DNA of 64,000 nucleotides from a virus. The position numbers and the translations under genes were made by a program. Shown piece by piece: positions 3,884 through 62,241 of the stretch. The DNA is taken from IMG/VR virus record IMGVR_UViG_3300020020_000002, positions 1-64,000 of that record; one strand, written 5' to 3'. The notes under the pieces were generated by a model. That model worked only from the letters and a program-made list of their open reading frames with translations, searched no databases and was not told the DNA's origin. Each line of letters opens with the position of its first letter. Position 1 is the first letter of the stretch.

Positions 3884-3942
3884 CGCCTGTCGTCTACCGC
3901 AACGGCTTGCCAGTGTCAAACCGCGCGACCGAGCGCGGTCTG
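3884..3942 (-). promoter_or_regulatory. promoter cassette P9 (leaderless-type) overlapping the fibre gene 3' end
   Basis: Minus strand: ACCGCGC-N6-GCGCGGT inverted repeat, TTGACA (3914-3919, overlaps fibre stop)-17 nt (GCAAGCCGTTGC)-TAGACG-7-ATG(3883). Confidence 0.5.
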
Positions 3943-6798
3943 GAGGTTCTGTGTGGCTGTGTAGAACGCGGCCGCCTCGGCATCGGTCAGGCCCAGCCCG
4001 ATCGACGCCATGCCTAAATATCCGCCATAGGGATAGAGCGGCGAGCCCGCGTTGTTGCGTGCGCCGATGAAGATCGGCCCACCCAGCGGCGTGGGTGGCG
4101 AAACCGTCGTGACCTTGGTCGCCACCGCGACGCCTCGGTTGAAACCTGCGGCGCTGCTGAGCGATCGGCGCGTGACGATGTTGTGCGAGAGTGCATTGGT
4201 CCACGAGCCCGCCATGCGACCGTCGGAAATGAGGTTGCAGTCGAAAGTCACCGAGGTGGCCGTGGCGATGAAGATGCCCTCCATGCTGATGATCGACTGG
4301 TTGCCGTCGTAGAGCCCGATAATGTCGCACGCCGATCCGAAGGCGCTGCGCGCGTAGACTGAAACGTGGAAGTCGGCGAGGTTCATAAACGCCGAGGAGT
4401 TGACCACCGGGTTGCCGTAGCCAGTCGTGCCGTTGAGTAGCACGCCGTTCAAGTCGTGCGTGACGCCGCCGACCCACGTCATCGGGTAACTCGACGACTT
4501 GAGGTTTTGCGCGTGTGTTGCTCCCGTGCCGCCAACAAACGGCCAAAGTGCCTGCATCTTGGTCCACACGCCAGCCGCCTTGAGTTCCGAAATGTAGACG
4601 TTGATTGCCGCCTTCGTTGTGGGTCCAGTGATGCCAGCGCGGGTGAAGAAATCAGCCGCCTCGGCGTGCATCGGAGAGATCGGCACAATGACCTGCACGA
4701 AACCCTGCGTGCCGTTGCCGCCTGCGCCGCTCGGCGTGCCGTTCACACCGCACCCACCGCCACCGCCGCCCGCACCGTAGCCGATACCGTTCGCGCCCGC
4801 GCCGCCCGCGATGCCGCTGCCGCCGCACCTGCCGCCACCGCCGCCAAGGCCGAAGCAATAAACCAAGTCGTTAGAGTTGGCCTGCCCTCCCGGCGTGCCT
4901 TGCGTGGTCAAGCCGCCGATGCCTCCCGGTAAAAGGGTCGAATTGCCGCTGCCCAAGGTGCCCGCGTTGCCGCCGTCGCCGCCGACATTTCCCGTGGTGA
5001 GCCCGCTGCCGCCACCGCCGCCCGTGGTTGCCATAAAAATCGGGATGTCGGCACCCCAACCCGGGGAACCTTGCCCGCCCGCGCCGCCGCCGGACGTGGA
5101 AAGTGCCGCGCCGTAGATGACGATGCCGCTCGTGAGACTCGCGCCGCCTGCCGGGTTGCCACCGCTGCCGCCGCCAGTGCCGAACCCGCCACCCTTGGCT
5201 TGCATGGTCGCGAAAACGCTCGTGCCACCCGCGACGCCGTTGATTCCGTCCGTGCCGGATGCCGCCTGCGCTGCGCCGCCCGCGCCTGCTGGACCGACGG
5301 TAACCGTCACCGTGGATGGCAAAAGCGAAACTTTCATGCGGGTTATCACGACGCCTGCGCCCGCGCCACCTGCGCCGCCTGTTCGCGCCGTGCCCGATCC
5401 ACCCACGCGCCCGCTGCCGCCGCCACCACCGCCGCCGACGAGCGTGACGTCAGCGTATGCGCTAGGGTTAGCGTTCGCCGGTTTCACCCACGTTCCACTT
5501 GTCGTGAAAGTCTGAATGTTCAGGCCCTCGACCGTGTCGACCGATGCACTGCTACCGCTTGGTCCTGTCGCGCCCGTTGGGCCGGTTGCACCCACGCCGC
5601 CTGCCGCGCCGCTTGGTCCCGTTGGGCCGGTCAATCCGGTTGGACCGACGACGCCTTGGATGCCCTGTGGTCCCGTCGCACCCGTCGTGCCCTTGATCCC
5701 GGTGGGTCCGGTCGCGCCACTGGGACCGCTCACGCCTTGTATTCCTTGCGGGCCTTGCAGACCTGTCGGGCCGGTCGGTCCTACCGCGCCCGCTGTTCCT
5801 GTCACGCCCGTTGGCCCGGTTGGACCGGCGACGCCTTGAGGGCCTTGGATGCCGGTCGGTCCCGTTGGTCCTGCCGGGCCTGCGCCACCCGGTGCGCCTG
5901 CCGTGCCGCTCGGGCCAGCCGGGCCGGTTGCGCCAGATGGTCCGATCGCACCTTGAGGGCCTTGAATTCCTGTCGGACCAGTGGGTCCGGCGACCCCTTG
6001 GGGCCCGGTTGGACCCACTGCGCCCGCTGTGCCAGTTACGCCGGTTGGACCCGTCGGACCCGCCGCTCCAGCGGGCCCTTGGGGCCCTGTGGGCCCTACT
6101 GCACCGGCAGGGCCGGTTGCGCCTGTGGGACCGGGCACAGTCGAGTTTGCTCCGGTTGGTCCCTGCGGGCCGGTTGCACCGCTCGGGCCGATCGCACCTT
6201 GGATGCCCTGCGGGCCGGTTGGTCCAGTCGCGCCGGTCAAGCCGATCGGACCAGTCGGACCTACTGGGCCGGTGGCTCCGATCGGACCCGTCACGCCGGT
6301 CGGTCCCATCGGGCCTTGGATGTTGCCCGCGTCGATCCATGTCGCGGTATCGGCATCCCAAATCCAAAGGTGGTCGTTGTCCTCGGACACGTAGGCGTCG
6401 CCATCCTCCATTCCGGCCGTCGGCAGGTCGCCCGCCGTCGGCACGGTGCCTTTGACGTTGATCCCGGTGCCTGCCGCGCCGGTTGCGCCGGTTGGGCCTT
6501 GCGCTCCGCTGGGGCCTTGTGGGCCGGTTGGCCCCTCGGGACCAGTCGCGCCCGTCAACCCGGTTGCCCCGGCTGGCCCGGTTTCACCGATCGGACCAGT
6601 CGCACCTGCCGGGCCGGTTGGTCCAGTCGGTCCTGCGCCGCCTGCGCCACCGCCGCCGAACGGCTCGATGTTGCCCAGCCAGTCGATCGTGTAGAACTCG
6701 TAGTCGGCCTTGCTGAGAAAGACGCGCTTGCGGCCGGTGGCGGGCAGGCTGGGGGGCTTGTTGACCGATTCCCACGTGATTGAGGTTTGTGGATCCAT
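3916..6798 (-). CDS. tail fibre: collagen-like G-X-Y repeats + glycine-rich domain + C-terminal lectin/LamG-like domain
   Basis: Track ORF; two long Gly-X-Y blocks separated by [26 protein letters not shown] (motif common in collagen-like phage fibres), a poly-Gly-rich block, then a ~270-aa globular C-terminus; ATG 6796-6798 shares one nt with the stop of the giant ORF (TGATG); GTG 6799-6801 is an alternative start. Confidence 0.8.
5556..6318 (-). repeat. collagen-like Gly-X-Y triplet repeat block 2 (coding)
   Basis: Continuous GPTG/GATG/GPQG triplets in the fibre translation; 9-nt periodic GGN-CCN-NNN DNA; boundaries approximate. Confidence 0.8.
6463..6657 (-). repeat. collagen-like Gly-X-Y triplet repeat block 1 (coding)
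   Basis: [52 protein letters not shown] in the fibre N-terminal region; boundaries approximate. Confidence 0.8.
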
Positions 6799-9700
6799 CA
6801 CCGAGCAAGGGCACCCTTTTTAGGCTTACCCTTGCCCTCGGACAACTTCAAACCACGCAGCGCAGGCTCCTTACCTTTGGCGCTCGGCGCTAGTCTTCCT
6901 CGTCCCTGTCCTGACCCGGGATTAGGCCTGTCTCCATAACGTAGATTTCCTCCAACGTCATCACCTCGCCGCGCTCGGCCATCGCCTTTTGCGACGCCTT
7001 TAGGTTCTCCACCATGGCTGGCTCTAGCCCACGCTGGAGTAGCGATTCCTCTTCCGATAAGTTGTTGTCGAGCTTTGGCATCAGGAAGAGCTTGCCATGT
7101 TCCGCGCGCCTTTGCAACCGCTGCCTTGTCGCGCCGCATCTTTGGCGAGTAGAGCCCGCGGATCGCTTCCCACGTGATGCTCTGCATCTGCCGGGGCAGA
7201 AGTCCGCGCTCCTCGGCCGCTTTTTTGTAAGCGTCGAGGTAGAGATGGTAGGATCCAGAGATCCCGAGCCCCTCACTGCCGGGCATACCCTTGGATCCGA
7301 AATTGTGCGTGACCTCCAGCGCCGAGGATCCGAGCGGCAGGATGTGCGCGGCCGCGACCGCGTGGGTGTCCATCGTGGCGTCGCCAAACGGCGTGTTGGG
7401 CGCGATGATGTTGTTGTAGAAATTGCGGACCTTGTGCTCGTTCGAGAGGTTGTCCGAAATGCTCGTGAGATCCCCGTTTTTGAGCATGCGCACGCCCTTC
7501 TTGATTTCCTCCATCGAGCCCCAGCCGTTGCGCTGCGGGGTGCCGTCGTCTTTCGCTGCCAGATGCATTGGATCGCCGTCGGGTGACACGACCCGGTAAT
7601 CCCGGCCGTGCAGGCTCTGCGCCAGCGCGCGGATCGCCCACGCCTGCAGGTGCGGATCTGCATCCAGCTCGGCGACACTCTTGCCGAGCATTTGCTCCAA
7701 CAGGGCGCGCCGTTTGTCGCGCGCCTTCTCGTGCAGTTGCTCGTTGTGGCTGCGTCGGCGCAGCGCCCCCACTTTTGTTTCGCCCGGCTTCGCCTTGCGT
7801 AGCTCTCCCGGCTTCGCCACGGCACCGCTAATCATGTCCTCCAGCTCCGCGCCGACTAATTCCGGCGTGATCTTGGTGTCTTGGTGGTTCTTCCACACGT
7901 TCATCAATTGCTCGGCTTGCGCCACGTTCATGAACCAGTCTTTCTGCGGACTGAGCGCCGCCAGCACGCCCGCGGCCTGCTCGGGTGTGTAGCCAAAGCG
8001 GCCGCCAAAGTCCTTCGCGATCTTATTCGCACCATCATACCACCGCGTGGCCGCAGCGCGCACCTCGGCCGGGAATGCGTCGTGCAGCGCGAGCAGGTTT
8101 TTCACCATCCAGTCGATGGTCTTTTGCCGCTTTACCTGCGGATCTTTTTCGCCGCGGATCTCCTGCGAGAGGTGTGGGTAGTTGAAGGCCTCCATCTGCC
8201 GAGCGAGCAGCTCGGGTGGCACGATGCCACCGTGGATGTTCGAGTCCTGCGGGGTTGGCGCTGGCTTGGCCGAGGTGCCTAGCTTGGCGGTGCCGACGCG
8301 CAGCGGATCGTCGACCGGGCTGGGCTCGCTGATCTTGGCCTCGCCGCCACCCGGCATGAGCTGTGCCTCGGGGGCTGTCGCTCTGATTGCATCCCGCGCC
8401 GCGACCGCGTCGTCGTAGCTCTCGTGCAGCGGCACCTGCTCGCGCTCTGCGTTGTAGTCGTAGTTGGGATCAACCGGTCGATTCGGATCGCGCGTCATGA
8501 ACACGATGTCCGGCTCGCCTGCTTTGTCATACGGCCAGCCCTCGGGCGCGTATTCGCGGTTGAACTTAATTCGGCCCGTGGGGCGGAACCCGATGTTCTG
8601 ATACAGGTTGGGGAGAAATCCGTTGATGTCGTAGGCGTCGAGCGTCTCGGCTCCCTGCTCTACCGCCTCTTTCAGGTGGTCGAGAATCTTTGCTTTTGAT
8701 CCCGGCTTTTTGAAGACCGAGACGAGATCCCCATCCGGTGTCACCGCGACGCCTGCGGTGTCGTCGTCTGCAAGGATGAGCTTGTAGCCCTCCTTTTGGT
8801 ATTCGCTTACGTCTTTGATTTCGACGGCGGCACCGAGCGGGTGACCTGCGACAGCTTCTGTGATCGCGCGGTGGAAGCGGTCACCTGTTTCAGCTCCTCC
8901 TGCGTGAGTTCGATACCCAGTGCCAGCGCGTTGTCCGACATCTTGGCCTTGATCTCCTCGGGGCTGTGTTTCTTGGCTGGTTTTTGTGGCTTGCTCATTT
9001 GGTCGAATTGTTTCGGCGGGCACTGTAGCACCTGTGTCAACGGCTTGCGCTAGCGCGCCCTTCTTGGCGGGAAGCGCCATCAGTTGATCGGGCGCGTAGG
9101 AGTCCAGTTCTTGCAGGCTGGTGATTTTGTGTGACGTTTCGTCCTGCTCGTGGAACGCGTAGATCTCCTCGCCCTCGCTCCAGCGACGGTGCGCGTCTTC
9201 CCGGTTCGAGATCGGCTCGCCCTCGCCGCCCCCGGGCATGAAATTGACCTCCTGCTGGCGCGTCATTCGCTCGATCGCTGCGCGCCGCATCTCCGCATCT
9301 CCGCGGGTATAGCTGACGGTCTTGATGCCCTGCTTTTCGAGCATCGATCGCAGCGCGGGATCAATCGAATCGGGCACGACCGCGGCCGCGAATTTTTTAC
9401 CCTCCAGCGGCACGATGTCGGACACCTTGCCCTCGAAATACTCGGTGGGCAGTTTTCGGATCTTGTCGAGAAACTCCTGCGTCATGGCAGCCATGTTCTC
9501 GTAGTTATCGCCGTAGACATTGCGCAGGTGCTTCTCATCACCCTCGATGAAATCGATCACGTCCCGCTCGGTCGTCTCGGGATCCATCTCCTGATCCTCG
9601 CGAATCGATTCGAGGTCTTCGCGCAGGCGTGCGAATTCGCGCGCCGCTTTCTTGGTGACGTTGGTCATCTCCTCCCTTGGGATCACTCTCTCACGGTCTG

Positions 9701-12700
9701 CGCCCATCTCTTCGAGTGCACCGTAGCCCTTGGCCACTCGCGCCCGCATGCCGCCCGCACCAAAGCCTTCACCTTCGCCACCGCGCAACTTTTCCGCCTT
9801 CATCACCGCCATGACGTTGTCGAGCGTGTGCTCGATGTCGGGCTTGCCTTCGACCTTGATGACATCCTTCGGTTTCGCGCCAGCTTCGTCCACCTTTTGC
9901 TGGATCCACTCGGCGACCTTTTCACGTTGGCCGGTCAGTTTTCCGATGAGTTGCATACGCAGCTCGTGCTCCTCCAGCTTCGTCGACGGGGCCTCCAAGA
10001 GCCCGTGCTCGCGCAGGTAGGCGTATTCACCTAGGTGGTTCCAGCTCGCTTCATCGAAGCCTCTGCGATTGATCGAATCGACGATCGATTGCGGCGTCCA
10101 TTCCTTGGGGCCATACGGGTTCTTCTGCGTGATCGGCCGGATCTCTTGCGCGTATTTCTCAAAGGCGTTGGCCACCTTGCTTGCGTTCTCGCCTTCATAC
10201 GTGGCCATCGTGTGCGGATAGCGCGGGCTGTAAATGTCGGCGTCAAACCACTTCATCGCCGGGTTTTTCTGCGGGTCGACCAAGTCCTTCCCGCCGATCA
10301 GCGTGATCTCGCCAAAGCCGCCGAACTTGCTGCGATCGAGCCGCACGCCTGCGACACTAGGCATCGCCAGCCCGCCCATCTTGAATGCGTGACGCAGGGC
10401 ATCCTCGCTTAGGTTGTGCACGGCCCCCATGTTCCGGCGCGCGTCGGCCTCTTCGAGATTCCACTGGTCGGCCACTTTTTGTGCGTCGGCCGCGGTTTCG
10501 CCTTGATAGACAGGTTCTGTCTCGCCCTCGACCTCGACGAAGTGCTTGTCGCCTTTCTTGACCACCTTCGCGATCTCGACCTCGGGTTCCAGTGCACCCT
10601 TCTTGGCTTCGCCATCGCCGCCGCCGGGCATGTAGCTGAAATCGGGCAGCACCTTGCTCGACACGTCGGAATAGGCGACGTCGCCGCGGGCATCGCTTTC
10701 GCTCTCCCTGAATTCGGTGGGGAAGAGTTTATTTCGCACCTTGAACGCTTCTTTCGATGTGACCCACGAGGTTAGTGTGTCCTTGCCTAGGCGCTGCATC
10801 TCCTTGGCCATCTCGCGATACAGCGCCTCGCCGTAGCCCTTGCCGCGGGCGAAGGCCTCGACGTGCGAGCTGTTGACTTGGACGGTCCCGTCCGGCCGGT
10901 GCGTGTAGGCGATGTAGCCGACATCCTTCCCGCTGTCGTCTTGGATCTTGATCTCACCCCAGCCGCGCTTGGTGTCTTCCCGGGTGCTGGTCGTGTAGGG
11001 TGGCAGCTTGGCTTTGCGCTCATCGAGGGCCCGTTGCGATGGACCGCCGAACTCCTCGCCTGCCAACGTGCCTTTCGGCCGCTCTGCGATCGCTTCACCG
11101 CCGCCGGGCATGAAGCCAGCAGCGACGTTGCCCCAGTTGATGCCCTCGGGCGAGAACTCACCGGCCGGTGCTTCGAGGCCGACCTTGCGCACGATCGCAG
11201 GCTCGCCGCTCGGTGCGGTGCGCACGTCCTCGATCATGTCGGGGCTCAGATTCTCCCACACGCTTTCGAGAATGTCGCCCGTGCCAACGCGCGTCTCACC
11301 CGCCTTGTTCGTGTAGGTGAACTTGCCGCCTTTGTTGAGCATTGCGCGGAACGGATTGACGTCACCCGTTTGGTCGTCGACCGCCCACTGGTTTTCCTTG
11401 GCCACGCGTTGCGCGTCCTCGGCCTTGAGTTGCGTTTGCGGCTGCAGCGCGGGACGCTTGCGCACCTTGACGCCCGTCGCCCGGGCTGCTTCGTCGGCTG
11501 CGAGCTTGCGGGCGTGCTCGGCTGGCTTGCCGCTGATGTCGTAGTTCAGCGCCGCGTTGAGAATATCGAAGCGGCCGCGCTCGATCGGTATCGGCACGCC
11601 GGTTTGCGTCATGCCCTCCACCGGCCCGCTGCCGTCACCCTTGTAGCCGTTCTTGTGGTTCTCGACGTAGGCCTTGATGTCCTCGCGGATCGCCGGGTCG
11701 TTGATGTCGGCGTAGATCTTGGCCTTGGCTTGCTGCTCCGGTGTCAGGTGCGTCTTCGCTGCGCCGAGAAGTTTCGAGAGGTTGGCGACCAGCTTGTCGA
11801 GGCTGATGCCCCGCTGCAGCACCTTGCCGTTTTTCGTCACCTCGACGCCCGTGAAAACGATGCCCTTGTTTTCCTGCATGAGCTGGCGCGACTTTTTGCC
11901 TTTATCCAGCTCGTAGTCGCGCTTGCGTTCCTTGCCGGTGATGTCGTCGGGATCCACCGCCTTCTCCGCGCTCCAGTAGTCGACGTAGCGGATGTCGCCG
12001 CCCGAGTCGGCTGCTTGGATCTTCGCGATGTCGCCCTCGCCCATGCCGAGCTGCCGCACGAGCGCCCGGTGCTCGGGTTTGTTGAAGTCGAGGCGGCCGC
12101 TGTAGGCCACCCGGCCGGTGAGCGGATCTGTGCGACGCTGGAAAAGCCGTGGATCGCCCTCGGCGGCCTGATTGGCGAGATCGAGCGCCGCCTGATTGCC
12201 ATCGGGCGCGGCCTTGATGAGCGAATCGGCCGCATCGTCGTCGACCGTGCGTGCTGGCAGGATCCCGGTGGGTCTTCCGACGCCTTCCGATGGTGCTTCG
12301 GCCGGTGCAGGCGAAATTTGGGCCTCTTCGGCCGGTTTTGGCGCTGGGGGTGCCTCGCTGGAAGGGGTCACAGGCTCGCTAGGGCTCGATTCTGACGCTT
12401 TTGGCGCATTTTCCGGTGCTAGAGCGCCCTGACGGGGCTGGGAGGCCATTTCTGGCACCCCACCGGCCAGTGCTCCGCGCCCAAACGGCCCCACGCCGGT
12501 CGGTGTGGGCATTGGAGGCACAGGAACGCGTGCCGGGGCCGCTGGTGGCGCGGCTGGAGGCACCACAGGCGGCGCACCGGGGGCAGGCGGCCCGCCGGTT
12601 GGCGTCGGCGCTGGGGTTGGTCCCGCTGGCGGTGGCGTCGACGGGTCGACATTGAGCGCGGTGCGCGCCGCGGGTGACACGATCTGGCGCAGCGCATCGA

Positions 12701-15104
12701 GGTAGATGCCGGTGACCTCGGCGTTTTCCTTGTGGTTGAAATACGATCGTCCTCCGACCTCCCGCGGATCGATGCCAATCTTGCCGCCGAAAAACTCACC
12801 GATGCCGCGCTGGATCTTGTCGCGGATCCCTTCGGGAATGACGAGATCGGCCGTGCCCTTGGTCGAGAAAATGCGGCCCGCGGTTTCGGCGACGAACTCG
12901 TCGATCGCCTGCGCGTCGGTGAGCGGCCGCGCGCCGCTCTTTGTGAGTTCCTTGTTGTAGCCGTCGATGAACTGCTGGAATTCAGGCGTCGGCTTGCCGC
13001 TTTTGTCGGTGAGCTGCGCCTTGATCTTGCCCATTACGCCGTCGTAGAGCGGGCCTCCCTTGCCGCTGAACGCGCGCAGGATGTTTTGCGCGACGTGGCC
13101 ACCCATCTCGTGGCCTGCGACGTGGCCGAAGACACCTTTGCCCTCGGGCCCCATCATGCTCGGGTGCTCCGCGTTCACGTAGGCCTTGCCGTTATGCATC
13201 GCGAGGCCGCGATCGTTGCCTGCGGGCAGGCCGCGCTCGGCTTTGAAGGCGGCGTAATCGGCCGCGCTCAACGGCACGATCTCGCTCACGCCTTTTTGAC
13301 CCTGCGGGCCGGTCGTTTCCATGCCGCCCAGTGCGTCCGTCAATTCGTAGACCATGTTCTTTCCCGCCTCGGGCAGCCGTTGCACATAGCGTGCGCTGGC
13401 CTGACTCCACTTGTCGCCCCGCTGCGCCATCTCGGTGAAGCGCGCTTGGCCGTTCGCACGCATCGACGGCAGGATCGCCTTGGTGAACTGCGGCTTGAGC
13501 CCGCCGGTCAAGCTGCCCATCGCGCCGAACAGCGGTGCACCCTCGGAGAGCGCCGCAAAGTTACCCCAAAAGTTTTCTTTGTCGCCCGCCGCCATCGCGA
13601 GGTTGAGCGGTGCCGCACCGACTGGCGTCGCCAGCATGTCGATCACCGTGTTGCTGGCTCGCACCTTGGCGTTGGGGATCGCAGTCTTGGCGAATTTCGT
13701 GAGGGCTGGTGCGCCTGCGGTGGCCCGGGCTGCCTTGGCCGCCGCCTCGGTGGCTGGCGCGACCCACGTGCCGTTGGTCAGGGCTTCAAATCCCTGTTGG
13801 CGCAAAACCTTCGCTGCGCCGCCGATCTTCGCCAGCGCGCCCGCGGCGAGGATGCCCGCGCCGATCTTGCCCGCATTCTTCCAGTCGCCCTCGATGATCT
13901 TTTGCGCCGCGGCATAACCACCGCCCGCGGCCGCACCGCCGAGCACCAGCCTGCCGCCTTTCGTTGCGAGCACTTCCCCGGTGCCACCCAAGGCTGTGGC
14001 GAGCGCGCCACCCACGCGGCGCATGCCGGGCAGGCCGGGCGTTTTGATGAGCATGAGGTTCGTCGGATCCATGATCGCGCCGATCGCGGCTGTCGCACCC
14101 GGGTCGACCGGTTCCGCGCCGATGCGTTTCAGGTTTTCGGGCCCAAGGATTTCACTCACCGGCACGCCTTCGTTTCTCCACTTCATGTAGTCGGCCACCG
14201 CGCCTTCATCGAGCGGGATGCCGCTCGCGAGTTTGATGTCTTTGCGCGTCGCGCCGACGGTCTGGCCGAACTTGTTTTTCAGCGCCTCGCGTTTCGCGTC
14301 TTCGGGTTCCAATTGCGCGACCATTACGTTGACCTCGGCGCTTTCCTTGGGCGTCAGCGGCTTGCCTGCGCGCGCTTTCATGAGCGCGGTCGTGAGCATC
14401 GGGCCGTAGATCTGCGCGTAGGGCACCTTCTTGCCCGCCTGCAGGATCTCGCCGCGTCCTTTCAAATAATCGGGCAGCACGCCGACCGCTGCGTCGATGC
14501 GCGCCGGATCGGCCGCGAATTTCTTTTGCGCATAGTCGAGCGGCAGTTGTTCGCCCCAATCGAGCAACCCGCGAGCGAGCCGCTCGCCGCTTTGGCCCGC
14601 CATTTGCACGCCGATCACGTTCTCGGCCGTGGTGGTCGCTGCGTTCGGGTCGCTGAGAATTGCTTGGCCCGCTTGCTTGAACAAGCGCGGCACGCTCATT
14701 GCCATGCCGCGGCCCCAGCTCCCGAATCCGCTGGCCACGTCACCAAACGTCATCTTGTGGCTGTAGTGCGGGTAGGTCTTGCCCTCGGGATCCTTGAAGC
14801 CGCGCGCCGCCCGCGCTTCGTGGACCTTGAACGCGAGATCCTGACTGGCCGGATCCTCATACTTCGCGGCGAACGTGATCTCGTCAAAATTCGGATCGTC
14901 GATCGTCTTTTGCAGGTCGTCCGGTTTTTCGCCGAGCAGATCCTCCAGACTTTGCGACGGTTTCGCCGGGGGTGGGAATTTTTCCTGCGCCGCGGCGGTG
15001 CCTTTGCCGCCTGTGGCGAGGTCGAGTTCAGCGATGTCGGTGATCGGCTCCTGTGGTAGGTCGGCCGCTAGATCATCGTCGAGCAAAGAGGAAAGTTGAG
15101 GCAT
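6798..15104 (-). CDS. giant multidomain virion/ejection (polyvalent-type) protein; 2768 codons as one open frame, 3' limit and internal continuity uncertain
   Basis: Track ORF. Gly/Ala-rich glycine-zipper-like stretch (about 13690-13980), Pro-rich linker (about 12400-12700), GNAT-type motif [15 protein letters not shown], second acetyltransferase-like module ([18 protein letters not shown]...YAPEGW), conserved C-terminal module (RWYDGAN...ALSPQKDW..N; KVRNFYNNI). Sits where T7-like phages place internal core proteins, between internal proteins and the fibre. Confidence 0.7.
6890..7081 (-). CDS. small acidic protein (63 aa) overlapping the 3' end of the giant ORF in another frame
   Basis: C-terminal part of track ORF 6890..7825 from ATG 7079-7081 ([63 protein letters not shown]); natural composition and better G/C third positions than the overlapping giant-ORF frame. 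Confidence 0.5.
   Translation of the reverse strand: MPKLDNNLSEEESLLQRGLEPAMVENLKASQKAMAERGEVMTLEEIYVMETGLIPGQDRDEED
8807..8998 (-). CDS. alternative-frame ORF inside the giant gene (63 aa; [38 protein letters not shown]...)
   Basis: Track ORF 8807..9040 from ATG 8996-8998. Over its first 40 codons I count 31/40 G/C third positions versus 13/40 for the giant-ORF frame over the same DNA. Confidence 0.35.
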   Translation of the reverse strand: MSKPQKPAKKHSPEEIKAKMSDNALALGIELTQEELKQVTASTARSQKLSQVTRSVPPSKSKT

Positions 15105-52042: not shown

Positions 52043-52251
52043 TTGATGTGTTGCATCCATGCCTCTTGTTCGCCGCAAGCGAAGAGGAACTCTTTCAGAA
52101 CTTTGATCGCATCTTCACGCTGCATGCTGGACACGTAGCTAAGCTTTCCACCAGCGCCGAGCGGGGCCGTGAGCAGGATGAATGCGTGGTTGTCCGGCAG
52201 GTGTTGCTCGATCGCTTTGGCTGCATCTTTGAGGTAAGTTTTATCGGGCAT
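52039..52251 (-). CDS. hypothetical protein (70 aa)
   Basis: Trimmed to ATG 52249-52251 (MPDKTYLKDAAKAIEQHLPDNHAFILLTAPLGAGG...). Confidence 0.55.
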   Translation of the reverse strand: MPDKTYLKDAAKAIEQHLPDNHAFILLTAPLGAGGKLSYVSSMQREDAIKVLKEFLFACGEQEAWMQHIK

Positions 52252-53629
52252 CAGGTGGCGCGGTTGCGTCGAGTGGTTTGTCTGGCACCTCGGCGATCGG
52301 CTCACCGCCGGGTTGATAGTCTTCAATGCATAGGTGGCCCAGCCATCGAGCAGTGTAGTCGACGATCGAGTTGGCGACCCTGATGTCGGGGTTGGTGGTG
52401 ATCCCGCGGGGCTCGAACTTATGCCACGCGAACATGCGCGCGATCTCCCTGACCGGCACGCCGTATTGCAGGAGCATGCTTAGGCTGCGCGCCCACGCGT
52501 CGGCGAAACCCTGCAGGGTTGAGCCCTGCTTCTGGATCACGATGAAGACCTCGCCCGGGCGGCTTGGATCCACGTCGTCGCCCTCGCCGTAAAAGCCCAC
52601 GGTGATGTAGCCCTTCTGCCCGGCGATATCGAACTTGTGGGTGACCGCGTTGCGTGTGTCGGGCAGGCGGTGCCGTTGCTCGATCGGCGCAGGCCCGTCC
52701 GCTTGCACGGGCATCGTCTCGGTGAGTTGCTGGGCGAGGCCCTTGGTGAAGACCTGCCCACAGTTGTGGCATTGCACGACCCTGTTGAACTCGTTCCAAA
52801 AGATCGGGCCGACCTCGATGTCGTGGATCGGGTAGCCACAGCACGGCGTTACCCCGGTGCGCTTGATTGCGTTCGGGTTGGCGGCTTCGGCGGCGGTGCG
52901 GGCGGGGCGCTGTTGGCGCAGGTCGGCTTCAACGTAGTTTTTAATCGCGCTATCGAGCCCGTCATCGTCGCGCACCATGTTGGTCAGGTTTTTGATCGTG
53001 CACGCGTTGATGCGATGATCGAAGTCGCGGCGCGTGCATGGATCGCCCAAGTAGCGCCCGCCGATCTCGCCCTGCGGGCCTACCGGGCCTCGGGCGTCGT
53101 TCCAGCCGTCCCAGTCCATCACCTCGAAGCCGAGCAGCGTGGCCCACACCTCGGGCAGCAGGAGCACGTCCGGCGTGAGCTTGTCGACGTTGATCCGCGA
53201 GCCACGGCGCAGCTTTAACTTTTTGACCTCTTCGCGCATTTCACCGAATGCGTCGCAGATGTCCTCGACGCACTCGGCCAGCGGGATCGAATTCCCACCG
53301 CGCTCTTTCTCCCACCCGACCCGGTCGAGCGCCGCGCCGATGCGCTTGGCGATGTGACCCAGCACGATCGCTGCGCCGTGGTCGTCGAACTGCAGCTCGC
53401 CTAGGTCGAAGGCATGCGTGACGTCGATCTGCTTGTTCATCGCGCTGGTGGGCGTGCGGCGGTTGATGACCGGCACGATCGCGGTGTAGCCGGTGACGCG
53501 GACGCGGGTGCCGGGCGAGATCTCAGGATCTCTCGCGGTCAGCACGGTGGCGATCGGATCTTGAAAGCGTGGCGGTCCTACTTCGAGGTTGAGTGGGTCG
53601 GGTGGTGTTTGCATCGGTTGAGTGTTCAT
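52241..53629 (-). CDS. protein with stand-alone NrdJ C-terminal (TSCPD-like) domain, Zn-ribbon and novel N-terminal region (462 aa)
   Basis: C-terminal THKFDIAGQKGYITVGFYGEGDD...PGEVFIVIQKQGSTLQGFADAWARSLSMLLQYGVPVREIARMFAWHKFEPRGITTNPDIRVANSIVDYTARWLG parallels the C-terminal segment of long class II (B12) ribonucleotide reductases; no catalytic barrel upstream. Confidence 0.6.
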   Translation of the reverse strand: MNTQPMQTPPDPLNLEVGPPRFQDPIATVLTARDPEISPGTRVRVTGYTAIVPVINRRTPTSAMNKQIDVTHAFDLGELQFDDHGAAIVLGHIAKRIGAALDRVGWEKERGGNSIPLAECVEDICDAFGEMREEVKKLKLRRGSRINVDKLTPDVLLLPEVWATLLGFEVMDWDGWNDARGPVGPQGEIGGRYLGDPCTRRDFDHRINACTIKNLTNMVRDDDGLDSAIKNYVEADLRQQRPARTAAEAANPNAIKRTGVTPCCGYPIHDIEVGPIFWNEFNRVVQCHNCGQVFTKGLAQQLTETMPVQADGPAPIEQRHRLPDTRNAVTHKFDIAGQKGYITVGFYGEGDDVDPSRPGEVFIVIQKQGSTLQGFADAWARSLSMLLQYGVPVREIARMFAWHKFEPRGITTNPDIRVANSIVDYTARWLGHLCIEDYQPGGEPIAEVPDKPLDATAPPDAR

Positions 53630-61113: not shown

Positions 61114-62241
61114 TTAGAGGTTGGCACCGTCGCGGACGAGCATGATGACGCACGAGGCCTCATCGGTAAATGTGCAAAGCATATTGCGATCGGGCAGGTA
61201 GCTCATCGTGATCTCGTCGGCGGTGGAAGTGGCGATCAGCTCGGCTAGGTAGCGCGCGTTGCAGCGCAGGTGGTGGTCGGTGCCATACATCGTCGCAGCG
61301 ACCTCGTGACCTAGTTTTGCGCCGTGCTGGTTGTCGCCGATCACCTCCACGCCCATCGCCGAGAGTTTGATCGAGAGGATCCGGCCGTCTTGGAAACCGA
61401 GCGGGGCCGCGGTGCGCACGGCGCGCAGCAGTTCGTGGCGCAGGCAGGTGAAGCGGTTGGGGTAGACGACGGCGGCCGGTGGGATGACCGAGGACATGTC
61501 TGGCGGCTGGTCCTCGCTCAGCGGCAGGTGCGCCTCGGTGTCGCTGGTGATGACGTGCAGCACGCCGTCGCTGAAGCTCAAGCTGACCCGGCAGTCGTCG
61601 TCGGTCAGGATCTTTTGGATCGCGGCGATCGAGTCGTTCACGATCATGTGGCCGTTGTCCTTCGTGCCGTTCGGATTCACCGGGGCGTAGACGCCCTCGA
61701 TGTAGGCGATGTGCACCCGCTTGCGATCGACGCCGAAGAGCGTGAGGTCTTCGTTTTGCACGCGCAGGCACAGGCCGGAAAACTTGGGTTCGTGCACGGC
61801 GTTGGCGGCCGCGGGCGAGGCGATCTTGATCCACTTGAGAAGATCGCTCGCGGTGAAGCTAAGCGAGTCGCCTTCGGTGGCTGGCACTGGCGGCGGCAGC
61901 AGCTCGGCCTCGGGGAACTGATTCAGCTCGGCCTTGGTCTTGTTGCTGCGGATCACGAGCGCCTTGCCGTTGTTCTCGATCGACGTCTCTTCCCCCGGCA
62001 TGGCGAGGATCGCGTCGTGCAGGAGTTGGTAGTCGACGCCGCACTGGCCTGACTCGAAGGCCTCGCACTCGATGTCGATCGCCACCGAGGCGTGTGGGGT
62101 GGTGCGCCGTAATCGCACACTGAAGTCGTCGGATTCGATCACGACCGCCTGCGTGGCGAGGTTGGTGCTCTGGATCCCGGGCACGACCGCCAGACGAGCG
62201 AGCGCCTTGCGTAAAGTGTCGGTGTTTATGCTCAGTTTCAT
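61114..62241 (-). CDS. dnaN: DNA polymerase III beta-type sliding clamp
   Basis: 375 aa; collinear by eye with E. coli DnaN along its length (KALVIRSNKTKAELNQFPEAELLPPP vs ERMLVRSGRSRFSLSTLPAADFPNL; LFGVDRKRVHIAY vs TVATDGHRLAV; LRCNARYLAELI vs IGFNVSYVLDVL; C-terminal VIMLVR vs YVVMPMRL). Confidence 0.8.
   Translation of the reverse strand: MKLSINTDTLRKALARLAVVPGIQSTNLATQAVVIESDDFSVRLRRTTPHASVAIDIECEAFESGQCGVDYQLLHDAILAMPGEETSIENNGKALVIRSNKTKAELNQFPEAELLPPPVPATEGDSLSFTASDLLKWIKIASPAAANAVHEPKFSGLCLRVQNEDLTLFGVDRKRVHIAYIEGVYAPVNPNGTKDNGHMIVNDSIAAIQKILTDDDCRVSLSFSDGVLHVITSDTEAHLPLSEDQPPDMSSVIPPAAVVYPNRFTCLRHELLRAVRTAAPLGFQDGRILSIKLSAMGVEVIGDNQHGAKLGHEVAATMYGTDHHLRCNARYLAELIATSTADEITMSYLPDRNMLCTFTDEASCVIMLVRDGANL

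Follow-up and report, generated by a model that had tools for sequence, protein, structure and literature searches.

The window analysed here, a 64,000-nucleotide stretch of viral DNA (positions 1 to 64,000 of IMG/VR virus record IMGVR_UViG_3300020020_000002), encodes a giant protein in which a short peptide of the form (F/Y/L)-M-P-G-G-G-(E/D) occurs four times. The protein joins domains of unrelated effector type (GNAT, PBECR5, GNAT-like 2 and DUF7178) within one 2768-aa open reading frame (ORF) and belongs to the polyvalent proteins, a known class. We find that the four copies are this protein's version of a family-wide junction motif, consisting of a small residue, then R, G or N, then F, M or L, and P, followed by a polar or acidic disordered linker. 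The features of the giant ORF are listed below in the order of the protein, with window coordinates; (-) denotes the minus strand, pLDDT the predicted local distance difference test score of AlphaFold2 (AF2) models, and P-numbers its homologues; the conserved N-terminal part is termed the chassis.

6798..15104 (-): giant ORF, 2768 aa, with Pfam matches to PBECR5, DUF7178 and GNAT; a polyvalent, probably virion-delivered (ejection) protein
13487..15104 (-): N-terminal chassis part, residues 1-539; kept in P0002 and P0003; most of 54 members keep it from residue ~200-330 on
12645..13486 (-): zincin-like metallopeptidase (MPTase) domain (candidate), residues 540-820; HEMGGH at 665-670 (nt 13095-13112) and putative third ligand E736 (nt 12897-12899)
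12255..12644 (-): Pro-rich disordered linker, residues 821-950; pLDDT <50; KKGAL-like RGALA at 876 and QGALA at 892
11115..12254 (-): second chassis domain, residues 951-1330; pLDDT ~93; ends '...NVAAG' directly before copy 1
11094..11114 (-): junction copy 1, FMPGGGE, residues 1331-1337; F1331 and P1333 invariant in the family alignment; pLDDT <50 from P1333 on
10647..11042 (-): GNAT 1 module, residues 1355-1486; Pfam Acetyltransf_1 at 1377-1449; ordered in the AF2 model; Foldseek GNAT matches at E ~5e-6
10614..10634 (-): junction copy 2, YMPGGGD, residues 1491-1497; inside the low-confidence stretch 1487-1508; the aligned column reads YMP or FMP in P0004, P0005, P0019, P0038 and P0051
10590..10604 (-): KKGAL copy 1, residues 1501-1505; 11 residues past the start of copy 2 (Y1491 to K1502)
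10437..10571 (-): mini-domain private to this protein, residues 1512-1556, beta-beta-beta-alpha; pLDDT ~85; an insertion relative to P0004, P0019, P0038 and P0051
9255..10430 (-): PBECR5 RNase-like two-domain module, residues 1559-1950; Pfam PBECR5 at 1555-1746, E 2.5e-19
9222..9242 (-): junction copy 3, FMPGGGE, residues 1955-1961; pLDDT <50 from 1956 on; aligned to FMP in P0019, P0038 and P0051
8892..9221 (-): short module and low-complexity linker, residues 1962-2071; holds KKGAL copy 2, residues 2014-2018 (nt 9051-9065)
8385..8891 (-): GNAT-like 2 module, residues 2072-2240; PHROG 2563 at 2095-2205; BLAST matches to P0006, P0014 and P0017
8340..8360 (-): junction copy 4, LMPGGGE, residues 2249-2255; alignments to P0004, P0005 and P0006 begin at query residue 2256, and that to P0014 ends at 2258
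7005..8339 (-): DUF7178 module, residues 2256-2700; Pfam E 3.4e-24; 51% identity to the C-terminal modules of P0004 and P0005
6801..7004 (-): C-terminal tail, basic and rich in Gly/Arg, residues 2701-2768; ends KKGALAR (nt 6801-6821)

A junction motif with a conserved core

The original prediction, made from the DNA letters alone, held that the motif occurs four times in this protein. MPGGG is indeed found exactly four times, with the methionines at residues 1332, 1492, 1956 and 2250 as predicted, and chance is an improbable source, since amino acid composition leads to an expectation of 0.006 copies and no 5-mer ever reached four copies in 2000 global and 2000 block shuffles. The nucleotide positions first given for the copies are right at their starts, while their upper bounds fall 3 nt short and so cover MPGGGx without its first residue. 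When the window is scanned in six frames, counting frames of 100 codons or more, [FYL]MPG turns up in the giant ORF alone. The four copies show synonymous codon differences (CCC/CCG; GGC/GGG/GGT; GAA/GAG/GAT), and the repeat has thus been kept at the peptide level rather than arising from a recent DNA duplication.

An exhaustive phmmer search with residues 1-830 retrieved 54 giant proteins that share the chassis. Exact MPGGG and a second recurring peptide, KKGAL, are both absent from the first 16 homologues, and no homologue has exact MPGGG. The shorter [FY]MP is found 114 times in the 54 chassis homologues together (6.8 expected), all but one of these lying beyond residue ~1250, after the chassis, and the motif reaches up to 8 copies per protein. 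P0002-P0005 carry 4-7 copies of [FYL]MP each (0.2-0.7 expected), and an IMG/VR relative, L004, whose chassis (N-terminal region) is 29% identical, carries four copies of FMP. A logo built from 116 sites reads x-A-[R/G/N]-F-M-P-[D/E/S]-[E/T/D]. Members without FMP have FLP at the corresponding places (AAGFLPE, NPDIRFLPE and GQPMFLPE), and the core of the motif is thus F-[ML]-P.

Judged from the sequences, only F-[ML]-P is the conserved part, and GGG(E/D) is private to this protein. The expectation that the motif would recur in homologous giant proteins therefore holds for the core and fails for GGG(E/D); absence from every homologue, which the original prediction had named as evidence against itself, is not what we find. 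We count a protein in the F-[ML]-P junction family when at least two copies lie C-terminal to the chassis, at module ends and ahead of a polar disordered linker, and the window protein has four copies, at residues 1331, 1491, 1955 and 2249, the first three of them ahead of low-pLDDT linker in the AF2 models.

An IMG/VR DNA-pattern scan for the module end NPDIR-FMP led to more giant ORFs with 3-5 copies each and a HExxH motif of their own, and the motif thus extends beyond this chassis type. A metagenome DNA-pattern scan for FMPGGG(E/D) gave at least 120 single, unrelated matches. F[ML]P junctions are absent from the 3125-aa protein of Limnohabitans phage DC33 and from gp40 of Roseobacter phage CRP-738, both of which belong to cultured phages that share single modules.

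Because all four copies contain a methionine, their ATGs could in principle be internal in-frame starts that produce nested smaller proteins, and AGGAGG or GAGG does stand 8 nt upstream of copies 3 and 4. Copies 1 and 2, however, have no Shine-Dalgarno-like sequence, the flanking F/Y and P are conserved at the amino acid level, and Met gives way to Leu (FLP) at homologous junctions in many relatives. The idea fails on this exchange of Met for Leu, and we regard internal starts as extremely improbable.

Module boundaries, linkers and tail elements

The copies had been predicted to fall between recognisable modules, and the positions of Pfam, PHROG, AF2, Foldseek and BLAST matches all agree with this. 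P0003 is collinear with the query over residues 1-1339 and unrelated afterwards; in the alignment of P0001-P0003, conservation runs through 'AAGFMP' and is followed by complete divergence. The second chassis domain is kept family-wide, with the consensus end 'EG(L/S)PNxxxxAAG-FMP'. The high-scoring segment pair with P0004 begins at query residue 1331 and subject residue 2025, which is FMP in both proteins, three further pairs begin directly after copy 4, at query residue 2256, and those with P0019, P0038 and P0051 end at query residue 1957, on FMP in all four proteins. Modules of the relatives are bracketed in the same way. The GNAT 1 module of P0004 lies between FMP2025 and YMP2174, a Zeta toxin of P0002 lies between FMP1325 and YMP1500, the same PBECR5 two-domain module stands between FMPs in P0019, P0038 and P0051, and ART-PolyVal, found in P0004 and L004, ends at 'DIR-FMP'. 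Module columns were compared in an alignment built from trimmed module rows (A5); global MAFFT alignments misplaced modules and were set aside.

The architecture of the family is chassis-FMP-[module-FMP]n-tail, with the motif closing every module. The cargo of the window protein comprises GNAT 1; the mini-domain with the PBECR5 RNase-like module; the short module with GNAT-like 2, whose tblastn matches are phage acetyltransferases and the C-termini of minor capsid proteins; and DUF7178. The ~45-aa mini-domain at 1512-1556 sits between copy 2 and PBECR5 and has no junction motif after it. Minimal members consist of the chassis, FMP and a short basic tail, as in P0046, which reads chassis-AGFMP-KDLARERIARRK-stop and ends ...AGFMPKDLARERIARRK-stop.

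The junctions also mark transitions from order to disorder. Two AF2 models span residues 540-1345 and 1300-1975 and so cover copies 1-3. In the first (31-sequence alignment, mean pLDDT 79), pLDDT is ~93 up to the last helix and <50 from P1333; in the second, residues 1487-1508 (copy 2 and KKGAL) and 1956-1975 are <50 and are flanked by well-modelled domains. Over the 15 residues downstream of the motif, the family-wide fraction of disorder-promoting residues is 0.74, compared with 0.61 in the background. These observations support a true short linear motif placed at the boundaries of modules.

Junction peptides of this general kind are familiar from polymorphic toxins, where a short peptide (VENN of CdiA, DPxGL of Rhs) borders a conserved delivery part and a swappable toxin, and where homology between alleles breaks. 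The window protein is similar in having a short peptide at the border of a conserved delivery part and exchangeable modules. It differs in that polymorphic toxins usually have one junction and one C-terminal toxin, with other sequences and other delivery, whereas here up to 8 junctions stand in series.

The coincidence of homology breakpoints with the motif is also what would be expected if F-[ML]-P were a cassette junction scar or structural cap, that is, a conserved module end or a recombination footprint with no biochemical reader. Upstream context is module-specific (NPDIR-FMP, TGKPAR-FMP, GQAL-FMP), eight copy-to-copy intervals are shorter than 40 aa and resemble emptied cassettes, and outside the motif-bearing clade the copy-3 column keeps Phe without M-P (FIG in P0004, FSL in P0011). 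Nine nucleotides, however, are probably too short to drive homologous recombination, the copies differ at synonymous sites, and the motif persists in chassis relatives down to ~25-30% identity while the surrounding linker diverges. The residues after the Pro, which are homogenised within each protein as described next, belong to the disordered linker rather than to the domain before it, which argues for recognition as a linear peptide. We consider a scar or cap without a reader to be distinctly unlikely.

Each protein has its own dialect of the motif. The first residue after the Pro has a within-protein identity of 0.48, against 0.16 in shuffles (p<2e-4), and the second has 0.24 against 0.12; positions -1 and -2 are not homogenised and are set by the preceding module. 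Examples are FMPE (6 of 8 copies in P0038), FLPG (P0045), FMPAK (P0004) and, in P0041, FMPSE at 4 of the 9 sites listed, together with one YMPSE and one FLPSE. The window protein has GGG(E/D) at all four copies, whereas the homologous GNAT module of P0004 is flanked by FMPAK and YMPAP. This homogeneity after the Pro suggests recognition of a linear peptide by a reader that evolves in step with each protein. In the literature searched, there appears to be no description of the junction code, of its dialects or of the way it is tied to a conserved chassis.

A second element accompanies the junctions. KKGAL begins at residues 1501, 2014 and 2762 (the last as 'KKGALAR-stop'), with an expectation of 0.013, and a KKGAL-like PKGTLAG follows copy 1 at residues 1343-1349. 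Its recurrence had been noted after copy 2, in the short module after copy 3 and at the C-terminus, with a related form after copy 1, and each of these placements is confirmed. Parallels after junctions elsewhere are 'FMPEAKGALS' in P0018 and 'FMPAKKGAPGAL' in P0004. The broader pattern [KRQ][GP][AT]L shows enrichment in the closest clade alone (7 vs 1.0 expected in the query, 5 vs 1.1 in P0002 and 4 vs 0.6 in P0018) and is found at the extreme C-terminus, a few residues past an FMP or in the Pro-rich linker. A '(K/R)x(G/P)ALA' C-terminus is kept in P0002, P0003 and P0018 despite different preceding modules, the conserved ends, that of the window protein included, being KKGALAR, KKPALADY and REPALAR. 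The rest of the family has '(E/K)A(A/K)R(E/Q)RI' instead, in 41 copies against 10.5 expected, 26 of the 41 being C-terminal or within 25 aa of a junction. KKGAL is thus the local variant of a C-terminal tail element that goes with junctions across the family.

The basic '(E/K)A(A/K)R(E/Q)RI' peptide is the extreme C-terminus of 15 of the 54 proteins (P0022, P0023, P0034, P0037, P0040 and P0046 among them). It also recurs internally, directly after the FMP at the chassis end, and KKGAL(A) replaces it in the window protein's clade.

The tail element also enters a rival reading, already raised in the original prediction as docking or packaging, in which the motif is a docking or targeting signal that stays uncleaved. 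F-[ML]-P and the adjoining tail element (KKGAL in this protein, 'ARERI' in others) would then bind a partner, for instance the portal or core, the inside of the capsid, DNA, a chaperone or a factor of the host, and would package, thread or position the intact giant protein. Minimal members fit this, as they retain FMP and a tail of 12-60 aa with nothing to release, and so does the retention of the tail element at the extreme C-terminus despite differing modules and its recurrence directly after junctions. Per-protein dialects would suit any co-evolving binding partner, and N4 vRNAP is packaged unprocessed and needs its MPTase region for encapsidation (Iyer et al., PMC5512222). On the other hand, docking creates no evident need for a motif after every cargo module, in up to 8 copies per protein; no other protein of the window has the motif, and an invariant signature of catalytic type (HEXXXH...E) is maintained alongside it. 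Docking by an intact protein seems to us rather unlikely.

A candidate protease and the reading of the motif

Residues 540-820 are a candidate zincin-like metallopeptidase, perhaps an active one, as judged from a modelled fold and its signature. AF2 gives this region a confident fold (pLDDT ~95) in which HEMGGH (665-670, of the form HEXXXH) lies in a helix, and H665, E666, H670 and E736 are invariant in 31 sequences. E736, with the nearly invariant E740, is in a helix ~65 residues downstream and would act as a metal ligand. Family-wide the signature reads HE(M/F/A)(G/A)GH, followed further along by a Glu that never varies; in place of the canonical HEXXH, the domain has the HEXXXH variant. The top Foldseek matches to 540-820 in the PDB are all zincins, namely anthrax lethal factor (prob 0.97, E 1.4e-2), collagenase H/T and serralysin (PrtC), with weak TM-scores and E-values. 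A hidden Markov model of the chassis MPTase gives no more than marginal matches in P0004 and P0005, around their HE motifs (domain E 1e-2 to 8e-4). The Foldseek matches are nonetheless consistent with one another and agree with earlier work, in which HEXXXH MPTases have been described in polyvalent proteins, MPTases have been related to lethal factor, and autoprocessing of the precursor by them has been proposed (Iyer et al. 2017, PMC5512222). The earlier statement that the window holds no prohead protease is accurate as far as the Pfam and PHROG scans reach; it overlooked this candidate domain inside the giant protein itself.

Proteolytic maturation that releases separate effectors, which the original prediction had put forward, is the best single reading of the motif. 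The precursor would be packaged in the virion and ejected together with the DNA. Its own zincin domain, or else another protease, would recognise F-[ML]-P and the next 1-2 residues in exposed linkers, and cutting at the junctions would free individual effectors for different targets. Here the catalytic activity of the domain, cutting at the motif, any choice of scissile bond and delivery by the virion are inferred, the last from the gene context and by analogy with phi24B gp47. That the protein is a self-processing multi-effector ejection protein working like MARTX toxins is accordingly a tentative view, which we hold to be quite possible though somewhat short of an even chance. A more specific version is more tentative still. 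F-[ML]-P plus 1-2 dialect residues might constitute a substrate code, with the chassis HEXXXH zincin cutting every junction after delivery to free GNAT, RNase-like, Zeta-toxin, ART and other effectors, and with the protease and sites of each lineage co-evolving.

Several observations weigh against self-processing. The Foldseek zincin matches are weak, with a best E of 1.4e-2, and no sequence-level peptidase match to the zincin region is found in the PDB (phmmer) or Pfam. In the AF2 model of 540-1345, FMP1 is not placed in the zincin cleft in cis, and residues past P1333 have low confidence. Related giant proteins without the motif have MPTase domains too, and N4 vRNAP, ArdC and TraC1 carry MPTases yet are transferred unprocessed (Iyer et al., PMC5512222). 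Minimal members such as P0046 retain the motif without an effector to release. Finally, dialect homogeneity may stem in part from duplication of junctions during module insertion.

The cut might also be made by a different protease, either an unrecognised phage maturation protease or a host protease, in which case the zincin would be an effector or a peptidoglycan degrader. Prohead proteases cut packaged internal proteins at short sites, L/I-x-E for T4 gp21 and S/A/G-x-E for phiKZ gp175. The motif is similar in being short and, in three of its copies, in ending in Glu, with 'GGE' fitting the G-x-E sites of some phage prohead proteases; most ORFs of the phage have no recognisable function, so a protease could hide among them. 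For the metallopeptidase in the giant virion protein of phi24B, moreover, a function at the cell wall has been proposed (bioRxiv 10.64898/2026.04.10.717836). Against this, GGG(E/D), including its Glu, is kept in no homologue, copy 2 ends in Asp, the motif is found in none of the window's other ORFs, and Pfam and PHROG gave no protease match, of prohead type or other, among the neighbours scanned. The motif, furthermore, co-occurs with a zincin signature in proteins that were retrieved independently of that signature. We consider cleavage by another protease to be quite unlikely. The narrower reading of the motif as a prohead-protease G-x-E site was rejected, as GGG(E/D) is private to this protein and no other window ORF carries the motif.

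A comparison with MARTX toxins illustrates how self-processing could work. In MARTX toxins, an internal protease cuts disordered inter-effector boundaries that share a minimal signature (Shen 2010, PMC3153235). The likeness lies in a huge precursor with a conserved delivery region, a variable string of effectors and an internal protease domain (a candidate here). The two systems differ in that MARTX toxins use an InsP6-activated cysteine protease (CPD) that cuts after Leu, in place of a candidate zincin and F-[ML]-P, and are delivered by a secretion system rather than a phage virion. The analogy is functional only; CPD and RTX repeats have no match in the giant protein in Pfam or NCBIfam, and it is not a MARTX member. 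A search of the whole protein against NCBIfam returned nothing.

A close framework is that of polyvalent proteins (PMC5512222), which the window protein resembles as a giant multi-domain protein of unrelated effectors (PBECR5 and GNAT here, ART-PolyVal and Zeta toxin in relatives) with a late or virion gene context and a candidate MPTase of the HEXXXH variant. It differs from them in its specific junction code with per-protein dialects and in a chassis that is unmatched in 50,697 GenBank phages. Iyer et al. 2017 define no processing sites or inter-domain motif, and 'FMP', 'boundary' and 'interdomain' are absent from their text (PMC5512222). Another point of comparison is gp47 of the podophage phi24B, a polyvalent protein of 2811 aa that mass spectrometry detected in virions and that is proposed to be an ejection protein (bioRxiv 10.64898/2026.04.10.717836). 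By its description, gp47 is likewise a giant polyvalent protein with a metallopeptidase domain (a candidate one here); it differs in having LPD1/5/38 and MuF-C peptidase domains, and no junction motif or processing is reported for it.

Polyvalent proteins are thought to be the first weapons that a phage or plasmid fires into a cell. Autoprocessing by their zincins was proposed in 2017 without defined sites, and the junction motif now provides concrete, mutable candidate sites, along with a simple parser of module boundaries in thousands of unannotated giant phage proteins. If the zincin does cut the junctions, these would be the first defined processing sites of polyvalent proteins and a phage counterpart of MARTX autoprocessing; if confirmed, the system would be a potential portable pair of self-cleaving linker and protease. 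A docking role, should that prove to be the function of the motif, would instead give a lead on the organisation of 300-kDa proteins during packaging and ejection.

Genomic context and further features

Tail-collar, tail-fibre and virion structural genes surround the giant gene, all on one strand. The 5' neighbours of the giant gene are a tail-fibre-like N-terminus, a tail-collar domain protein and a 'virion structural protein', and two genes follow it:

3916-6801 (-): collagen-like tail-fibre gene, directly downstream, with a 1-nt overlap with the giant ORF stop codon
2759-4567 (-): GT4 glycosyltransferase ORF, after the collagen-like gene; 602 aa in the window list and a 374-aa gene call on contigs

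Nearly all other large ORFs of the window (824, 563, 499, 462, 447, 390 aa and more) lack a Pfam or PHROG match, and no protease was recognised in the Pfam and PHROG scans of those neighbouring and other large ORFs that were scanned.

Neither megablast with the giant gene nor tblastn with the chassis found a match among the 50,697 GenBank phages, and on these sequence comparisons the phage is essentially dark matter. GTDB, with one genome per species, contains no relative and so provides no clue to a prophage or host, and a tblastn search with the ART module from L004 gave no match. The same protein is found on metagenome contigs of up to 74 kb. Fold matches in BFVD include ART-PolyVal and LPD proteins, which, like PBECR5, are typical of polyvalent proteins.

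The chassis contains Gly/Ala-rich hydrophobic segments at ~355-535, with hydrophobic windows at 413-416 and 486-488. These segments (window 13500-14040, minus strand, residues ~355-535) are conserved, weakly hydrophobic and glycine-zipper-like, and they may be membrane-active, as expected of an ejection protein.

Two further features were seen in close relatives. The two closest homologues have a RuvA_C-like (UBA-like) mini-domain in the post-zincin linker (P0002 817-857, P0003 825-861), and its place in the window protein is taken by the Pro-rich stretch with two KKGAL-like copies. Residues 1754-1806 of P0003, the closest full-length homologue, form a LAGLIDADG-like stretch in its C-terminal module (Pfam E 1.9e-4, below cut-off), possibly from an intein or homing endonuclease inserted into a giant virion protein.

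Elsewhere in the window, positions 61114-62241 (minus strand) encode a DNA polymerase III beta-clamp-like gene with weak Pfam matches, and positions 52241-53629 (minus strand) a TSCPD-domain protein. The minimal member P0046 is encoded in L007 (contig logan:ERR12350067_9043), a phage of 62 kb whose major capsid protein is of the SU10 type (PF17236), which hints that the chassis family belongs to SU10/phiEco32-like podophages.

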